NCBI GenBank assembly: GCA_965262715.1
Contig: OZ253553.1
Span: 1,760,001 to 1,824,000 of the forward strand
Source: Bdellovibrionales bacterium
GTDB taxonomy: Bacteria > Bdellovibrionota > Bdellovibrionia > Bdellovibrionales > JAUICD01
DNA length: 64,000 bases
Reading direction: 5' to 3'
Positions 15,302 through 60,181 of the stretch are shown piece after piece. Numbering within the stretch: position 1 is the first letter of the stretch; each line of letters begins with the position of its first letter. Position numbers and translations under genes: made by a program. Below the pieces are notes generated by a model. The model did no database searches, was not told the origin of the DNA, and worked only from the letters and a program-made list of their open reading frames with translations.

Positions 15302-15577
15302 GGGCGTCAAGAAGGAAACAAACAGTTTCCATGCTTTGCAAAGGATAAACAGGGTACTGGTAAAGTGGGTAAGAAGGACCTTAAAGAGTATGAGAAGAAG
15401 TTTTAGAAGGTCCAACAGATGGTTAAAAGGATTTGCGAGAGCAAACCAAGATTTATTTGCACACTGGAAGCTGGTACTGCCATAACAAGGTTTGGAATGA
15501 TAAGAGCCGTGTGGCGGGAGACTGTCACGCACGGTTCTGTGAGAGCTTAGGGGTGAAATTCCTCTATTCTACTGGAC
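15302..15577 (+). mobile_element. 3' remnant of a bacterial group II intron (class D-like): maturase C-terminus plus domains V and VI
   Basis: The frame encodes LQRINRVLVKWVRR...RWLKGFARANQDLFAHWKL* (stop 15483-15485); domain V GAGCCGTGTGGCGGGAGACTGTCACGCACGGTTC (15504-15537); domain VI ends CTACTGGAC. Confidence 0.88.
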
Positions 15578-15607
15578 TATCTGTAAATTCAAAGACAAGT
15601 AGAGCTG

Positions 15608-46301: not shown

Positions 46302-48014
46302 TTATTCTCTAAAAATAACGAAAATTTGATTTTGCTCTACACGAGCTTTATTTATGTCACTCTCTGAGAGAACATAATCCTGATATCCTTTAGCTTTTAA
46401 GACGATAAATTGACCTTCATGAAATCTTATTTGTTTAGGTGTTCTTTGATAGTCCCATACTCCATCTATAAAAATCTTAGCTCTACTTGGATGGCTAGAA
46501 ATAAAGATGCTCATGTAAGTGGGGGTTGCTTTTTCTGATGTAAGTGTTTTGTCCTTTTCATCTTTCCCATCTATGAGTTTTGTAATTTGTTTTTTTGTGC
46601 TTTGAAATAAAGTGCTTATTTTTTTAGTCAATTTATTTGTATCTTCTGGATATTTTGTCTTGAGATGAAGAGTAAAAATAACACCAATGGAGAACATTAA
46701 AAGCATGCCAAGTTTCATGCAGATAGAGCTAGTTATTTTTTTTGGAGAAAATAGGTTGTTAGGTTTTTTTACATGCTGATATTTTTGAGGACTCTTTTTT
46801 CTTTGTTGTATGAATTTATTAGGTGTTATTGCTTTTACTTGATTAGTTATAGTATGCATAGGAACTTGAGCGACAGCCTTAGATGCTACTTTAGAACTAG
46901 AGAACTTGCCTGATGATAATGACTGTGCTACATTTCCTTCTTGAGTAAGAGTGATTGTTTTTGTTTTTTCATCAAACTCTATACCTTTTTTTTCTAATTT
47001 CTCTAGTGAAGATTTTATAACTTTATTGATATCATCAAACTCTTTCTTATAAAAATTTTGAATCTTGTAACCAAGATGAATAGGATTGAAATTTGGATAT
47101 TTGGCATTGAGAAGACTAGATAACTCTTGATGAAAGTCGTTTGCTGTCATTTTCCTAAGGTTTCTATCGCGAATCAGAGCCCTACTCACAATTTTTTCTA
47201 TATCTGCGAGATATGGGGTTTCAGGACTTATGCTTTTTAATCTAGGAATATGAGCTTCTTTGACTTTTTTTAAAATTTTGGCTTGAGTGTTTGCATAAAA
47301 AAGACGTTGTTTGGAGAGTAGTTCCCAAAGAATAATACCTAAAGAAAAAATATCTGTTTTTTGGTTTATCTCCAACCCATCAGCTTGTTCTGGGCTCATA
47401 TAACTAAACTTGCCTTGAAGTTTCTTAGCTCGCATTTGAGCCATTTGAGTTGGGTCATTACGTTTAGATATACCAAAATCAATGAGCTTTACTTCTCCTT
47501 CGATACTCACCATGGCATTTTGGGGACTGATGTCACCATGTACTAGATAAAGCTTTTCTCCTGTTTTAGGATGAACAAACCTATGCGCATAATCTAAACT
47601 GGCAGCAAGTTCTTTAATGATATAGATTTTTTCTTCAAAAGCAAGATCTGCTTGGGCTGTATAAAGGTCCTTTAAAATCTGTCTAAGGTTTTTTCCTCTA
47701 ATGAACTCTAATTCTAAGACTAATTTTTGTTTTTTTTCTCCTTTTATCATCTCGTCAACGGTATTATAACCAATAACAGATGCGATATTTTTATGTGACA
47801 TATTCATCACTATGTCTGTCTCTTCCTCAAACATCTTGATGAACTCTAAACTTGAGGAAAAAGAGGAGATCATTGTTTTGATAGCCATTAATTTAGAGGC
47901 TTTTGGTTGACCTTTAGTTGTTTTAGGTCTCTTAACGGCTAAATGAACCTCGGCCATGCCTCCTTTACCGAGTTCATGAATTAAAATATATTCTTTACCA
48001 AGCTTTTTTTCCAT
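46302..48014 (-). CDS. Hanks-type Ser/Thr protein kinase with TM segment and C-terminal PEGA-like domain
   Basis: LGKGGMAEV, AIK, HGDISPQN, DFG, GKFSYMSPEQ, DIFSLG; TM segment; ISSHPSRAKIFIDG..TP. Confidence 0.92.
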   Translation of the reverse strand: MEKKLGKEYILIHELGKGGMAEVHLAVKRPKTTKGQPKASKLMAIKTMISSFSSSLEFIKMFEEETDIVMNMSHKNIASVIGYNTVDEMIKGEKKQKLVLELEFIRGKNLRQILKDLYTAQADLAFEEKIYIIKELAASLDYAHRFVHPKTGEKLYLVHGDISPQNAMVSIEGEVKLIDFGISKRNDPTQMAQMRAKKLQGKFSYMSPEQADGLEINQKTDIFSLGIILWELLSKQRLFYANTQAKILKKVKEAHIPRLKSISPETPYLADIEKIVSRALIRDRNLRKMTANDFHQELSSLLNAKYPNFNPIHLGYKIQNFYKKEFDDINKVIKSSLEKLEKKGIEFDEKTKTITLTQEGNVAQSLSSGKFSSSKVASKAVAQVPMHTITNQVKAITPNKFIQQRKKSPQKYQHVKKPNNLFSPKKITSSICMKLGMLLMFSIGVIFTLHLKTKYPEDTNKLTKKISTLFQSTKKQITKLIDGKDEKDKTLTSEKATPTYMSIFISSHPSRAKIFIDGVWDYQRTPKQIRFHEGQFIVLKAKGYQDYVLSESDINKARVEQNQIFVIFRE

Positions 48015-48168
48015 ATGAAAAACCCATAATTTACCATAATCTATATCGGATTATGGCATTTAGTTCTTAACTTAAGTGGGGTCTAGTTATAGCTTAAAAG
48101 GGCTATTATCATCAAAAAGGTAATGGTTATAAAATGAAACAGTATAGAAGATTTTCGATTTTAGGTAC

Positions 48169-48196
48169 TTGACAGGTGCTTTAGAAATGATATGGT
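48169..48196 (+). promoter_or_regulatory. Sigma70 promoter of the 5S rRNA gene
   Basis: TTGACA-16 bp-TATGGT with an extended TG, ending 5 nt before the 5S start. Confidence 0.6.
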
Positions 48197-48201
48197 GTAT
48201 T

Positions 48202-48319
48202 TACTGGTTTTTATAGCGGTGGGGGTACACCTGATCCCTTTTCGAACTCAGAAGTTAAGTCCGCCAGCGGCCATGGTACTACAGTGATCTCACTGCGGGA
48301 GAGTAGCACGATGCCAGTA
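48202..48319 (+). rRNA. rrf: 5S rRNA, not linked to 16S/23S
   Basis: TACTGG...CCAGTA helix I; CACCTGATCCCTTTTCGAACTCAGAAGTTAAG; ATGGTACT; GGGAGAGTAG. Confidence 0.92.
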
Positions 48320-49276
48320 TTTTTTCTTTTTATAGTACATATCTTGCAGAAGTAAACCTTTAAGCTGATTAATAGACAACAACAATTTCCCTAACATAAT
48401 GTAAAAAGACGAGGATATCCTTCTAGTAAAAATGCCTCAGGCTTTCTAGGCATTGCCCTATTTGCCAAACGGCGTGAGCCAGTTTGGGGGCAATGCCAGA
48501 AAGTTGCCAGAGGCAAGAGGCATTTTTAGTGAAACAGAGTAGCACGATGCCAGTATTTTTTCTTTTTATAGTACATATCTTGCAGAAGTAAACCTTTAAG
48601 CTGATTAATAGACAACAACAATTTCCCTAACATAATGTAAAAAGACGAGGATATCCTTCTAGTAAAAATGCCTCAGGCTTTCTAGGCATTGCCCTATTTG
48701 CCAAACGGCGTGAGCCAGTTTGGGGGCAATGCCAGAAAGTTGCCAGAGGCAAGAGGCATTTTTAGTGAAACAGAGTAGCACGATGCCAGTATTTTTTCTT
48801 TTTATAGTACATATCTTGCAGAAGTAAACCTTTAAGCTGATTAATAGACAACAACAATTTCCCTAACATAATGTAAAAAGACGAGGATATCCTTCTAGTA
48901 AAAATGCCTCAGGCTTTCTAGGCATTGCCCTATTTGCCAAACGGCGTGAGCCAGTTTGGGGGCAATGCCAGAAAGTTGCCAGAGGCAAGAGGCATTTTTA
49001 GTGAAACAGAGTAGCACGATGCCAGTATTTTTTCTTTTTATAGTACATATCTTGCAGAAGTAAACCTTTAAGCTGATTAATAGACAACAACAATTTCCCT
49101 AACATAATGTAAAAAGACGAGGATATCCTTCTAGTAAAAATGCCTCAGGCTTTCTAGGCATTGCCCTATTTGCCAAACGGCGTGAGCCAGTTTGGGGGCA
49201 ATGCCAGAAAGTTGCCAGAGGCAAGAGGCATTTTTAGTGAAACAGAGTAGCACGATGCCAGTATTTTTCTTTTTAT
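48300..49276 (+). repeat. Tandem array of four identical 236-bp units (5S 3' end + T tract + family A element) plus a closing 5S 3' end
   Basis: GAGTAGCACGATGCCAGT starts at 48301, 48537, 48773, 49009 and 49245. Confidence 0.95.
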
Positions 49277-49298
49277 TAAGATATTCAATAAATATAAT

Positions 49299-49513
49299 GG
49301 CATTGTTGCATATTGGTGATATATAAAGTCTAGAAAATTATGGTAGGCATCTTCACTAGCAGCAGGCAACCCCCGTGCCCTGTATTGCTGTTATTTTGTG
49401 GTTTTATTATGGTATAAAAACTTTATACAAATTTTTATCTCCTGAGGCACTGGCCTGAGCTAGATCAGATGCCTACCATAATTTTCTATACATATTTTTT
49501 ATGCAACAAGTCC
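49299..49513. mobile_element. IS903-type MITE carrying a family B hairpin
   Basis: GGCATTGTTGCATA...TATGCAACAAGTCC ends; B element at 49331-49488. Confidence 0.82.
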
Positions 49514-49653
49514 ATAAATAATGGATAATTTTATATAAAAAATATCTGTATTTTTATGCCTATTCTTTGTTGAATATGATAGAAAAATCATATAATCATA
49601 TATTTATAATAAAAATAAGTCAGACACACTAAGTAAAAAATAAAGTTATTATT

Positions 49654-50226
49654 ATGATTAAATCCATTAAATTTCAGAATTTTACATCACTTTATCATGA
49701 AGGTGAGGTCAATTTTGTAGTTGATGATGATGCTCCAGATATAAACGATTTTAAAAAGTGTGGTTCTCACCGGCTCTCAAAAGTATCAGTTATTTTAGGA
49801 GCCAATGGTTCAGGTAAAAGTAATGTGCTTTATGCGATTGCTTTTTTAAGAAGATTTATAGCGCATTCGTTTTCAGAAGCTTCAGAAGGGATAAATATAC
49901 CTCCACATGCAGCGCAAACAGATAAGCCCTCTTATTTCGAAGTGGAATTTTATATTGAAAAGCAGTTATATAAATTTTCTTTAAGACTTAATCAAGAAAG
50001 AGTGCTTTTAGAGACTTTACAATGTCTCAGTCAAGATACAAAGATGTTGTATTCAAGAGAATATGATTCTTCGAAAGGTTCTTATGCATTTGATGGTAAG
50101 AATTTAGAGGTAGAAAGTGATTTTATAAGTAGAGTGCGACCTAATGCTTCTGTTGTATCTACAGGATCACAATATAATTATAATAAATTCATTCAAATTA
50201 AAAGTTATTGGATATGCTTTTATTGA
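49654..50226 (+). pseudogene. N-terminal half of a RloA-like ATPase (truncated duplicate of 51701-52861)
   Basis: Aligns with the full copy up to QIKSYW, then breaks; has Walker A only. Confidence 0.85.
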
Positions 50227-51211
50227 TATGATCAAATTCTTTCTTATAAAAGTTTTGAATTTTATAGCCAAGATGAATGGGATTAAAACTTGGGTATTTT
50301 GCGTTGAGAAGACTAGATAACTCTTGATGAAAGTCGTTTGCTGTCATTTTCCTAAGGTTTCTATCGCGAATCAGAGCCCTACTCACAATTTTTTCTATAT
50401 CTGCGAGATATGGGGTTTCAGGACTTATGCTTTTTAATCTAGGAATATGAGCTTCTTTGACTTTTTTTAAAATTTTGGCTTGAGTGTTTGCATAAAAAAG
50501 ACGTTGTTTGGAGAGTAGTTCCCAAAGAATAATACCTAAAGAAAAAATATCTGTTTTTTGGTTTATCTCCAACCCATCAGCTTGTTCTGGGCTCATGTAG
50601 CTAAACTTACCTTGAAGCTTCTTAGCTCTCATTTGGGCCATTTGAGCTGGATCATTCCGTTTAGATATACCAAAATCAATGAGCTTTACTTCTCCTTCGA
50701 TACTCACCATGGCATTTTGGGGACTGATGTCACCATGTACTAGATAAAGCTTTTCTCCTGTTTTAGGATGAACAAACCTATGCGCATAATCTAAACTGGC
50801 AGCAAGTTCTTTAATGATATAGATTTTTTCTTCAAAAGCAAGATCTGCTTGGGCTGTATAAAGGTCCTTTAAAATCTGTCTAAGGTTTTTTCCTCTAATG
50901 AACTCTAATTCTAAGACTAATTTTTGTTTTTTTTCTCCTTTTATCATCTCGTCAACGGTATTATGACCAATAACAGATGCGATATTTTTGTGTGACATAT
51001 TCATCACTATATTTGTTTCTTCTTCAAACATTCTAACAAACTCTAGACTTGAAGAAAAAGAAGGAATCATAGTTTTGACAGCTAGTAGCTTAGAGGTTTT
51101 TGGCTGGCCTTTAGCTGCTTTGGGTTTCTTTACAGCCAGATAGACTTCGGCCATTCCTTCTTTACCGAGTTCATGGATTAAAATATATTCTTTACCAAGC
51201 TTTTTTTCCAT
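50198..51211 (-). CDS. Truncated duplicate of the Ser/Thr kinase (kinase domain only; possibly a pseudogene)
   Basis: Near-identical to the N-terminus of 46302-48014; lacks TM/PEGA; Gly loop GKEGMA. Confidence 0.8.
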   Translation of the reverse strand: MEKKLGKEYILIHELGKEGMAEVYLAVKKPKAAKGQPKTSKLLAVKTMIPSFSSSLEFVRMFEEETNIVMNMSHKNIASVIGHNTVDEMIKGEKKQKLVLELEFIRGKNLRQILKDLYTAQADLAFEEKIYIIKELAASLDYAHRFVHPKTGEKLYLVHGDISPQNAMVSIEGEVKLIDFGISKRNDPAQMAQMRAKKLQGKFSYMSPEQADGLEINQKTDIFSLGIILWELLSKQRLFYANTQAKILKKVKEAHIPRLKSISPETPYLADIEKIVSRALIRDRNLRKMTANDFHQELSSLLNAKYPSFNPIHLGYKIQNFYKKEFDHINKSISNNF

Positions 51212-51297
51212 ATAAAAAATCCATAGTCTACCATGATTTATATCGGATTATGGCATTTAGTTCTTAACTTAAGTAAGGTCTATTTTGTGTGAGCCAA

Positions 51298-51314
51298 AGT
51301 AGCACGATGCCAGT
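51298..51314 (+). pseudogene. Residual 3' end of a second 5S rRNA copy
   Basis: AGTAGCACGATGCCAGT followed by the same downstream sequence as at 49263 onward. Confidence 0.8.
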
Positions 51315-51351
51315 GTTTTTTCTTTTTATTAAGATATTCAATAAATATAAT

Positions 51352-51565
51352 GGCATTGTTGCATATTGGTGATATATAAAGTCTAGAAAATTATGGTAGG
51401 CATCTTCACTAGCAGCAGGCAACCCCGTGCCCTGTATTGCTGTTATTTTGTGGTTTTATTATGGTATAAAAACTTTATACAAATTTTTATCTCCTGAGGC
51501 ACTGGCCTGAGCTAGATCAGATGCCTGCCATAATTTTCTATACATATTTTTTATGCAACAAGTCC
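51352..51565. mobile_element. IS903-type MITE with family B hairpin (duplicate of 49299-49513)
   Basis: Near-identical sequence. Confidence 0.82.
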
Positions 51566-51700
51566 ATAAATAATGGATAATTTTATATAAAAAATATCTG
51601 TATTTTTATGCCTATTTTTTGTTGAATATGATAGAAAAATCATATATTTATAAATAACAATGAGCTGAAATGTACCTAAATAAGGATTACAGTTATTATT

Positions 51701-52861
51701 ATGATTAAATCAATTAAATTTCAGAATTTTACATCCTTTTATCATCAAGGTGAGGTCAACTTTGCAGTTAATAATGATGCTCCAAACACGTCTCATTTTA
51801 AGAAATGCGGCACTCATCGACTCTCAAAAGTATCAGCTATTTTAGGAGCCAATGGCTCAGGTAAAACTAATGTTCTTTATGCATTTGCTTTTTTAGGAAA
51901 CTTTATAGCACATTCATTTTCAAAAACTTCGGAAGGAATAAATATGCATCCACATGCAGCGCAGGCAGATAAGCCTTCTTATTTCGAAGTTGAGTTTTAT
52001 ATTAAAAAACAATTGTATAAGTTTTCTTTAAAACTTGATCAAAAAAGAGTTCTTTTAGAGACTTTACAGTGTCTCAGTCAAGATACAAAGATATTGTATT
52101 CAAGAGAATATGATTCTTCGAAAGGTTCTTATGCATTTGATGGTAAGAACCTAAAGGTAGAAAGTGATTTTATAAATAGAGTGCGGCCTAATGCTTCTGT
52201 TGTATCTACAGGATCACAGTTCAATTATGAGGAACTTCATCAAATTAAAAGTTATTGGGATCATATCATTTTTTCACCTTCTTTTAATGTTTTTAAAGCT
52301 TCTAAGTTTTATTTTGAAAATAAAGATTATTTTGATAATGCTAAAGAATATCTTAAAAAATTAGACCTTGGGTTATCAGATATCGATATAAAAAAAACAG
52401 AACAGAAAACATCAAAGGATAAAATAAAAACTGTTTATCTTCCTTATGGTATCCATAAACACAAATCTAAGGAATTTAAAATCCCTTTTATTTTTGAATC
52501 TTTTGGAACACAGAAATTATACACTACGCTTAGAATGATTTTACCTACTTTAGGTACAGGTTCACTTTGTGTTATAGATGAGATAGAATCTTCTCTTCAT
52601 CCAAAGATGTTGCCATTTATTTGTGATTTATTTGTATCGGAGGAGAGTAATCCTAAAGGGGCTCAACTGCTTTGTACAACACATGCGCCTATCTTGGTGA
52701 ATGAATTATCACAATATCAAATATTTTTAACTGAAAAAAATAAAGATTGTGAGAGTGAAATCTATCGATTGGATGATGTTGAAGGTGTAAAATCAGATGA
52801 CAACTTTCTTGGAAAATACTTAGCGGGAGCTTACGGCGGAGTTCCTCAGATTGATGTATAA
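51701..52861 (+). CDS. RloA/AbiLi-like AAA_21 ATPase
   Basis: IKFQNF, GANGSGKT, ESFGT, VIDEIESSLHP, QLLCTTH, YLAGAYGGVP C-terminus. Confidence 0.88.
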   Translation: MIKSIKFQNFTSFYHQGEVNFAVNNDAPNTSHFKKCGTHRLSKVSAILGANGSGKTNVLYAFAFLGNFIAHSFSKTSEGINMHPHAAQADKPSYFEVEFYIKKQLYKFSLKLDQKRVLLETLQCLSQDTKILYSREYDSSKGSYAFDGKNLKVESDFINRVRPNASVVSTGSQFNYEELHQIKSYWDHIIFSPSFNVFKASKFYFENKDYFDNAKEYLKKLDLGLSDIDIKKTEQKTSKDKIKTVYLPYGIHKHKSKEFKIPFIFESFGTQKLYTTLRMILPTLGTGSLCVIDEIESSLHPKMLPFICDLFVSEESNPKGAQLLCTTHAPILVNELSQYQIFLTEKNKDCESEIYRLDDVEGVKSDDNFLGKYLAGAYGGVPQIDV

Positions 52862-58225: not shown

Positions 58226-60181
58226 CCTGAGTTTGACACTTAATTTGAATTTTCGTGATATTTTTTTCAAGGAATGTTGTATTTATAGTCATTAGCGGTT
58301 ATTGTGTTTGTATTTTGGTCAAAAAGTGTAGTGTACTTATTTATCATACACTACGCGTCATATACCTTATTTTCTTTTATTTTTTATATTTTTCTTGTAA
58401 TGTATTTTTATGTTCATAAGGTCTACAAGAAATCCGAGAGGAGACATATATTATCATCTTGTTGAGAGCTACAGATTAGGTTCTCAAGTGAAGCAAAGGA
58501 TTCTAATGTCTTTAGGTAAAGCCGCGGATAAGGAAGTTAACTTGAAGAAGCTTCTAGAAGTATTATCTAAAGAGTTAGAGATAATTCCTGCTAGTAAGTT
58601 ATTAAAAGAGATTGATGTTAAAGACACTTTTATATTAGGTCCCTTACTTATAATAGATGCTATTTTCAAACAATTAAATCTCTATGAATTATTAACAGAT
58701 TTAAAACAAAAGCACCCTAAAGTACAATTTGATTTTGTTAAGATTATTTTTACATTGGTTATAAGCCGTTTTGTAGAGCCATGTTCTAAGCTTAAAGTAT
58801 TTTCACACTGGCAGAAGTTATTTTACCCTGATTTTTTAGAAGAGGAGCTTCATCTTCAAGACATTTATCGTTCTTTAGATATTCTAAGTAAGCATAAGGA
58901 AGATATAGAGAAGACTCTTTATACACAAGGTAAGTCTCAGTTAAGTTTTTTCAATGAGTGTGATGTTATTTTGTATGATTTAACGACATTGAGATTTGAG
59001 AGTACCCGAGAGGATTTAGATAATCTTCGAAGATTTGGTTATAGCAAAGAGAAGAGGAGTGATTGTACCCAGGTGGTATTTGGACTTTTAGTAGATAGAG
59101 AAGGTATGCCCTTAGGCTTTGATGTTTATCCTGGAAATACCTTTGAAGGTAAAACCATACCTTCAGTTATGGAGAAACTAAAAAAGAAGTTTAAGATCAG
59201 AAGATTTATATTAGTAGGAGATAGAGGTTTATTTTCTAATGAGAATTTACAATCTGTAAAAGCAAAGGGAGATGAATTTATAGTAGGATTAAAGCTAGGT
59301 TTATTAAAGGATCGTCATTCAGAGATATACAATTTAAAGAATTTTAAATTTATAAATGAAGATTTAGCTATATACGAGACGAGTTATAATGATAATCGTT
59401 GTATAATTACCTGGTCAAGAAAGAGAGCAGAACGAGATAAGAAAGTAAGAGAAGATATTCTATCTAAGTTAGAAGATAAGCTTTCAAAATCGTCATCAAG
59501 CACAAAGGATTTTGTATCTAATAGCAATTATAAGAAGTATATTATTCATCCTAAGAGTAAAGGCAAGCCTACTTTAAATAAGTCAGCCATAGAACAATCA
59601 GAGAGGACAGATGGTTTTTTTGGAATCATTACAAATACAGATAGTTTAAGTTCTGAAGAGATTATAACGAACTATAAGCAATTATGGAAGGTAGAGAATT
59701 CATTTAGAGAATTGAAAGGTACATTAAAGACACGTCCTATGTTCCACTGGACAGATAAGAGGATCTTAGGACATTTAGTTGTGTGTTTTTTATCTTACTT
59801 ATGTGAGGCTTATTTTTCAAAGAAGTTACATCAGAGAAACATCACATTAAAAGATAAAGCAATTACAGACAAGAGAATAAAGTCAAGGCCATTGAGTGTG
59901 GCAGAAGCTATGTCAAAGCTGAAAGAAGTACGAGCTATACCTGTGAGGGTAAAGGATAAGACACTTTGGATCAGAACAGATATTAACGGTAACAATGCTG
60001 ATGTATTTAAAGCTATAGGAGCAAAGATCCCATCAAAACAACTTAAAGTAGAATCTACTTAGACCTACAAACAATCTCTTAAATCTCTACCACAAAATCA
60101 AAATGTAGTGGTACAAAATCACACATCCACTGTAACTAACTAAAATAACTTAACTTTATTTTCGCAACTGTCAAACTCAGG
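58226..60181 (+). mobile_element. IS1634-family insertion sequence
   Basis: 13-bp perfect TIR CCTGAGTTTGACA / TGTCAAACTCAGG; long flanking direct repeats. Confidence 0.92.
58410..60062 (+). CDS. IS1634-family transposase
   Basis: YYHLVESYR..VKQR, LYDLTT, GYSKEKR.D..Q, PGNTFE, VGDRG, YKQLWKVE.SFR, RPMFH. Confidence 0.94.
   Translation: MFIRSTRNPRGDIYYHLVESYRLGSQVKQRILMSLGKAADKEVNLKKLLEVLSKELEIIPASKLLKEIDVKDTFILGPLLIIDAIFKQLNLYELLTDLKQKHPKVQFDFVKIIFTLVISRFVEPCSKLKVFSHWQKLFYPDFLEEELHLQDIYRSLDILSKHKEDIEKTLYTQGKSQLSFFNECDVILYDLTTLRFESTREDLDNLRRFGYSKEKRSDCTQVVFGLLVDREGMPLGFDVYPGNTFEGKTIPSVMEKLKKKFKIRRFILVGDRGLFSNENLQSVKAKGDEFIVGLKLGLLKDRHSEIYNLKNFKFINEDLAIYETSYNDNRCIITWSRKRAERDKKVREDILSKLEDKLSKSSSSTKDFVSNSNYKKYIIHPKSKGKPTLNKSAIEQSERTDGFFGIITNTDSLSSEEIITNYKQLWKVENSFRELKGTLKTRPMFHWTDKRILGHLVVCFLSYLCEAYFSKKLHQRNITLKDKAITDKRIKSRPLSVAEAMSKLKEVRAIPVRVKDKTLWIRTDINGNNADVFKAIGAKIPSKQLKVEST

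Follow-up and report, generated by a model that had tools for sequence, protein, structure and literature searches.

The only 5S rRNA gene of this Bdellovibrionales genome is followed by identical tandem units, each made of the tail of the gene and a copy of family A, a hairpin repeat that is dispersed through the genome. The array is a 5S-linked tandem repeat that, on balance, probably arose when the right end of a family-A copy was joined to a position 86 bases upstream of that copy's left end, and that was then probably multiplied by recombination. What is new here is the joint: the right end of the repeat is joined 82–86 bp upstream of its own left end, a regularity that is good in one genome and weak in a second. 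The joint falls exactly at the right end of the repeat, recurs at this distance at eight unrelated loci and has no preference for 5S genes. Positions refer to the window, the whole stretch of 64,000 nucleotides that was analyzed, unless a genome is named: G000 is this genome (contig C1), G001 is a relative in the same genus and G004 is another relative.

The 5S gene and its tandem array

Tandem Repeats Finder places a tandem array at 48300–49276, with a period of 236 and 4.1 copies, that starts 20 nt inside the 3′ end of the 5S gene (Table 1). The gene is the only one of its kind in the single-contig assembly and is well separated from the 16S gene. The four units are identical letter for letter, and the array closes with a 33-bp piece that is one T shorter in its T tract, after which different DNA follows. 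A preliminary description had reported four identical units of 236 bp, with the last 20 or so nucleotides of the 5S gene and the T tract recurring every 236 bp, and both points are confirmed. It had also taken the interval between two tails for a single hairpin-rich family-A unit of about 202 bp. The strong fold stands (on both strands, the interval folds better than all 200 of its shuffles, z −5.1 and −5.1), as does the involvement of a dispersed structured repeat, but the interval is not one element: it consists of a 52-bp decayed piece and a core of about 150 bp. Unit 2 resumes at a position in the 5S gene that precedes the left end of the core by 86 bp.

Table 1. Features of the 5S locus and of its duplicated flanks (window coordinates)
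Feature	Position	Strand	Remarks
Putative sigma-70-like promoter of the stand-alone 5S gene	48169..48196	+	Consensus match only: 10/12 matches, extended −10
Sole 5S rRNA gene of the genome, not linked to 16S	48203..48319	+	
Unit 1: 20 nt of 5S tail, a 14-nt T tract, a decayed 52-bp piece of family A and the core of family A	48300..48535	+	
Decayed 52-bp remnant of a preceding family-A copy, the same in every unit	48334..48385	+	Alignments to three compound copies
Family-A core, hairpin repeat of about 150 bp	48386..48535	+	Further cores at 48622, 48858 and 49094
Unit 2, identical	48536..48771	+	Starts at the joint: repeat right end to 5S position 98
Unit 3, identical	48772..49007	+	
Unit 4, identical	49008..49243	+	
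Terminal 5S tail and T tract, one T shorter	49244..49276	+	
Second copy of the 5S flanks, without the 5S gene and most of the array	50231..52258	.	Sequence comparison
Diverged remnant of the joint (decayed family-A right end and 5S tail) in the duplicated segment	51277..51329	+	

The array is real, and its four units are the probable copy number, because contigs are all that could be placed on the locus and none of them spans the array. This lack of a bridging contig would fit a cell with one unit that was multiplied in the assembly, but such an artifact is highly improbable: the genome was assembled as a single contig, perfect arrays of 3, 7 and 8 units stand at other family-A loci, and a contig from another study that covers most of one unit has a depth of 5.95, versus 2.3 for a single-copy contig (one contig, at low depth). 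The adjoining duplicated segment is confirmed by a contig of 1812 bp.

The units might be kept as functional RNAs, by analogy with RrA/B/F of Escherichia coli: transcripts reading through from the 5S promoter would be cut at each tail, and the array would be under selection. The layout is indeed that of rrA/B/F, which are transcribed and processed according to the accessible text of PMC8144298; no terminator-like site was found downstream of the 5S gene; and the stems of family A co-vary, with at least two Watson–Crick types in 19 of 25 consensus pairs. However, the array is not conserved. Neither family A nor a tail array is present at the 5S loci of 25 relatives (0/25, with 1.7–3.1 kb fetched for each), the same-genus genome included, and the strand preference of the family-A fold is weak and differs between G000 and G001. 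Selection for such RNAs is therefore a very improbable origin of the array. The preliminary description had suggested that read-through could yield a 5S precursor offering several alternative 3′ strands for helix I. An equilibrium fold prefers the last tail copy, in a model that missed the canonical 5S fold.

The surroundings of the array are themselves rearranged. The stretch from 47034 to 52258 is a mosaic segmental duplication that holds truncated copies of a Ser/Thr kinase gene (50198–51211) and an AAA ATPase gene (49654–50226). In the duplicated segment, the 5′ part of the kinase matches 47034–48088 at 93.6%, and the downstream part matches 49230–50211 at 89.7%. Nested inverted-repeat elements, whose outer ends resemble the IS5-type ends of this genome, lie just downstream of the array and of its duplicated counterpart (49299–49513 and 51352–51563). 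Elsewhere in the window, at 15335–15578, is an internally deleted piece of a group II intron, and a full intron with a maturase is found at G000 C1:1928475–1929872.

The duplicated segment had been read as preserving the empty site at 51298, where a 5S tail runs straight into downstream sequence. On closer comparison, the copy at 51298 has neither the 5S promoter nor the gene's first 97 nt, so that the 5S body is absent, and the 21 bases that precede the tail (51277–51297) are a decayed family-A right end. The stretch 51282–51329 aligns to the unit junction with 87.5% identity over 48 nt, and 20 of the 28 genome matches of the 21-mer (up to four mismatches, itself counted) are at family-A right ends. 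The site at 51298 is thus a deleted filled site rather than an empty one, which makes the joint older than the identity of the units suggests. A true empty 5S allele was not found. In run X6, one contig jumps back from 51328 to 51277, with unknown letters in between, which hints weakly that a related strain has this arrangement too.

Family A and the joint at its right end

Family A gives 444 profile matches in this genome, of which 303 are full length; they form 218 clusters and make up 2.0% of the genome. There are 1264 matches in the same-genus G001. Among 30 relatives searched, only G001 and G004 matched, and in G004 the matches are confined to three contigs (C1, C4 and C11). These contigs are probably mis-binned and derived from a sister organism of G000, because their average identity to G000 is 85–87% versus 68–69% for the main contigs, and G004 was therefore rejected as a third carrier. 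In a pattern scan, most of the matches listed came from one Bdellovibrionales genome. No Rfam family reached its gathering score, the only matches being two chance ones to mir-3160 at E 4. The accessible literature that was searched yielded no account of the repeat in Bdellovibrionota and nothing relevant on a small element that targets 5S.

The two ends of family A share an imperfect likeness of 10–12 bases, judged by eye, and 29 of 85 tandem arrays with a period of at least 60 overlap the repeat. In the array between rpsQ and rplN (G000 C1:2842754–2843519; L032 in the sister), the 51-bp flank is constant and the internal repeat varies, both from unit to unit and from G000 to the sister, which suggests that repeat copies have been replaced in place. 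Other repeats occur as well. A second family in G001 forms tandem units of 229–247 bp with a right-end motif like that of family A (C1:73910, 614613, 688112 and 317186) and was not found in G000, and another repeat of about 212 bp, seen at G000 C1:1927735–1927950, has many copies at 93–98% identity.

Among 209 full copies of family A that were tested, 34 right ends run into sequence from the copy's own upstream flank. Once flanks derived from the family, later units of a locus already counted and three paralogous positions had been removed, 18 junctions with a unique flank remained. Eight of these start 82–86 bp before the left end is reached, and the distance at the 5S locus is 86. Under four settings of a uniform null, the cluster has a p of 1e-5 to 1.2e-4, values to be read with a "unique flank" filter that was the analysts' own and a window of 82–86 that was picked after seeing the data. 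The remaining ten of the 18 have different spacings, and in some arrays the break is at another place. Three further joints (30, 56 and 241 bp) fell outside the filters of the script; with them, the count is 8/21. The eight flanks are mutually unrelated; several are the 3′ ends of protein genes, and most have no RNA gene nearby.

The mirror-image test, made on the left end, yielded 13 matches, mostly array ends or the same loci. Without the 82–86 cluster, the joint distances have no significant helical phasing (p about 0.05–0.2, n = 10). The captured flanks of about 80 bp do not appear to move to new loci in G000, as there was no peak at 80 in the shared upstream flank. In G001, unique flanks were found at 7 of 71 junctions, and four of the seven fit 82–86 only once unaligned bases are added. 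These four share one dispersed module and so count once, and replication of the joint in G001 is weak; a second 5S tail was not found there. The joint itself is old: besides the diverged copy at 51277, the rpsQ–rplN joint is common to G000 and a sister contig of about 90% identity. No prior account of a fixed capture distance was found in the accessible text of the literature searched.

The preliminary description had proposed that an element inserted at the 5S end, with a long target duplication. Specificity for 5S is not supported, as none of the 25 relatives is filled at 5S and seven of the eight loci with the joint at 82–86 have no 5S gene. In a version of the model without such specificity, a 202-bp piece would have entered at the end of the 5S gene and duplicated 34 bp of target, whether by insertion with long target duplication or through an IS1634-type transposase acting in trans, and would then have been amplified between the duplicated tails. 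This is rather unlikely but is kept alive by the long repeats that IS1634 makes in this genome. Long variable duplications, of about 52–578 bp, flank 11 of its 19 true copies here, a known behavior (PMC2266710, available text). The array does end in a tail copy followed by different DNA, as such an insertion would leave it, and a few solo copies of family A have complete flank duplications of 24–32 bp (C1:937540, 2252917, 482268 and 490607).

Nevertheless, long duplication is not a habit of family A. Flank duplications scoring at least 20 were found at 12 of 173 clusters with intact outer ends, against 3 of 173 shuffled pairs, and 62 solo copies have no short target duplication of fixed length (lengths 2–10, best z 2.3 over many offsets). 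The ends of family A match neither IS1634 nor the other listed multi-copy IS, which were rejected as its helpers. Further points against insertion are that the supposed empty site is a remnant of a filled one, that the fit of the 5S locus to the 82–86 peak would be left to chance, and that three such arrays either are missing the final copy of the flank or have the repeat itself as their end. Within the window, an IS1634-family element at 58226–60181 has inserted into a family-A copy, and its direct repeat measures about 120 bp.

The right end of the repeat is also found at tRNA genes and gene ends. In G000, the right end adjoins tRNA CCA ends, in antisense, at 0–3 nt in 4 of 39 tRNA calls, and in G001, it lies 3–8 nt behind CCA in 4 of 38. 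In 15 of 64 cases, the right end meets a facing stop codon at −2 to +9, whereas the left end has one within 10 nt in 3 of 48. These right ends at gene ends could alternatively be deletions that were halted by selection. In G000, tail-linked arrays follow tRNA-Arg and tRNA-Pro as well, and the sister contig has two tail-linked units of 246 bp behind an intact tRNA-Pro(GGG) gene (L321 19150–19900). At G000 C1:2823900–2824120, the anticodon arm of a tRNA-Pro(GGG) gene is deleted and its halves flank family A.

A process with no dedicated enzyme has also to be weighed, in which replication would stall at the folded repeat and the new strand would prime again further upstream, on 1–3 bases of microhomology, the distance being set by fork geometry or selection. 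It would accommodate the lack of a helper among the candidates searched, the AG microhomology at several joints, 5S included, and the duplications of the repeat's last 8–28 bases, which are common. However, slippage predicts neither a peak five bases wide nor exact CCA joints, and there is no leading/lagging bias (126 versus 116 clusters; 5 versus 4 among nine hand-picked loci), all of which makes this process quite improbable. The preliminary description had held that copies without flank duplications, together with relatives lacking the repeat at 5S, would reduce the case to one-off slippage. Both are largely what was found, but a one-off it was not, because the joint recurs at a fixed distance.

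Proposed origin and candidate helpers

According to the preferred reading, that of a joint followed by recombination, the right end of a family-A copy was joined 86 bases upstream of its left end, a point that would by chance have fallen within the last 20 bases of the 5S gene. A stretch of about 230–240 bases ending at the right end would have been copied out, as a circle or by a jump back during synthesis, and put back by homology. The 5S tail is then likely the captured flank of a copy unit of about 230–240 bp that was amplified later. Unequal crossing-over or rolling would have turned the older joint into four identical units, and later amplification, as the preliminary description had it, is the simplest account of them once the first joint existed. 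The shorter last tail may mark insertion into an allele without the repeat, or a later deletion. If the copy can re-enter the same allele or one without the repeat, both kinds of array would follow, those closing with the repeat and those closing with a partial flank. Rolling-circle elements use one-ended single-strand transfer, and such a transfer of the right end is the most likely mechanism, being the best fit. Capture of flanking DNA by rolling-circle elements is described in the available text of PMC3333891.

A mobilizing enzyme for family A was sought among Y1 enzymes, reverse transcriptases, IS110, IS1634 and other multi-copy IS, and none was found. The lone Y1 match in G000 is the TnpA of IS200, and IS110 has no match in this genome. 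Neither Y1 nor a reverse transcriptase was found in G001 with all its matches to the repeat. Searches for IS91 were blank, and their controls equally so. No split family-A element enclosing its own transposase was found, and an IS256 inside one G001 copy, considered as a helper, proved to be an insertion into the repeat. At G000 C1:2650522–2652294, a retron reverse transcriptase of the St85 type, with an effector-like domain fused to it, lies behind a tRNA-Asp gene and a family-A copy.

A possible partner is a four-helix-bundle protein (PF05635), related to the diversity-generating DGR protein Avd (PMC10053308, available text). In G000, 18 of 29 loci with pieces of this gene are within 300 bp of family A, versus 37 of 401 small-ORF controls, and in G001, all 24 of 24 are, versus 100 of 356. 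As an obligate partner, the gene was rejected: 12 of 12 loci from the main contigs of G004 are without the repeat. Seven of the eight fixed-distance loci are more than 15 kb from such a gene. Since the genes also stand without the repeat, they are a lead, not a result. Genes and fragments of this kind crowd beside family A at G000 C1:157286, 2438229, 2622800 and 2870300 and in G001, where many fragments begin right at the right end of the repeat and stop about 78 bp before the next copy.

Taken further, family A may be a transposase-free mobile repeat whose right end is transferred by dedicated machinery, perhaps with an Avd-like four-helix-bundle protein, that reaches about 84 bases beyond the left end, for a copy unit of about 230–245 bases. 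This extension is doubtful. If it held, tRNA- and 5S-linked repeats as a class would be a side effect of repeats of this kind settling behind RNA genes.

Comparison with known repeat systems

Repeats linked to tRNA and 5S genes have been known since 1978 and were said in 2021 to have no known function (PMC8144298). The accessible text of that paper describes 22 tRNA-linked repeats (TLRs) at ten loci of E. coli. A locus has one to five of them, and the final 18–19 bp of the upstream tRNA or rRNA form the end of each. Three of them, rrA, rrB and rrF, lie behind 5S and repeat its last 18 bp at a spacing of 150 bp, which overturns the earlier statement that no comparable small bacterial element at 5S was known (PMC8144298). 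The literature searched, so far as its text was accessible, holds no account of how such repeats originate. The present array stands directly behind its RNA gene, has 20 nt of the gene tail with the T tract in each unit and, with four units, falls within the range of the TLRs. By itself, it is an instance of a known layout. In contrast to the TLRs, its body consists of a repeat that is dispersed in hundreds of copies, it is not conserved at the 5S loci of relatives, and its joint is also found at the ends of protein genes; in a comparison made through Rfam only, there was no sequence homology. The layout thus agrees without homology, and the array is TLR-like rather than a member of that group by descent.

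Family A also resembles REPINs and BIMEs. The clusters of REPINs in Pseudomonas fluorescens are tandem units that include flanking DNA (PMC3116915), and for BIME-2 arrays, amplification by TnpA-REP has been modeled (PMC3333891). From the available text of these papers, the likenesses are a high-copy extragenic hairpin repeat, near-identical tandem units that include flanks, and local amplification as a second step. However, no RAYT or TnpA-REP was found in G000 or G001, genomes that are 90–93% complete, and on inspection, the family-A consensus lacks the inverted doublet of 20–40-nt REPs with a GTAG-type tag that REPINs have. In the accessible parts of the two papers (PMC3116915, PMC3333891), no counterpart to the preferred capture length of family A was found. 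Unlike a MITE, family A has no target duplication of fixed length, and no autonomous IS with the same ends was found.

Insertion with a long target duplication is documented (cited in PMC3457768), and IS1549/IS1634 make long variable direct repeats (PMC2266710). The 5S tail on both sides of the inserted DNA looks like the product of such an event, and an IS1634 of this kind is present in the genome. Unlike these elements, family A lacks IS1634 ends and is mostly without duplication, and the quantity that is conserved is the distance from the repeat, not the target. With the same tail-capturing joint present beside RNA genes as well as ordinary ones, and with its preferred distance, the origin of such repeats becomes testable.
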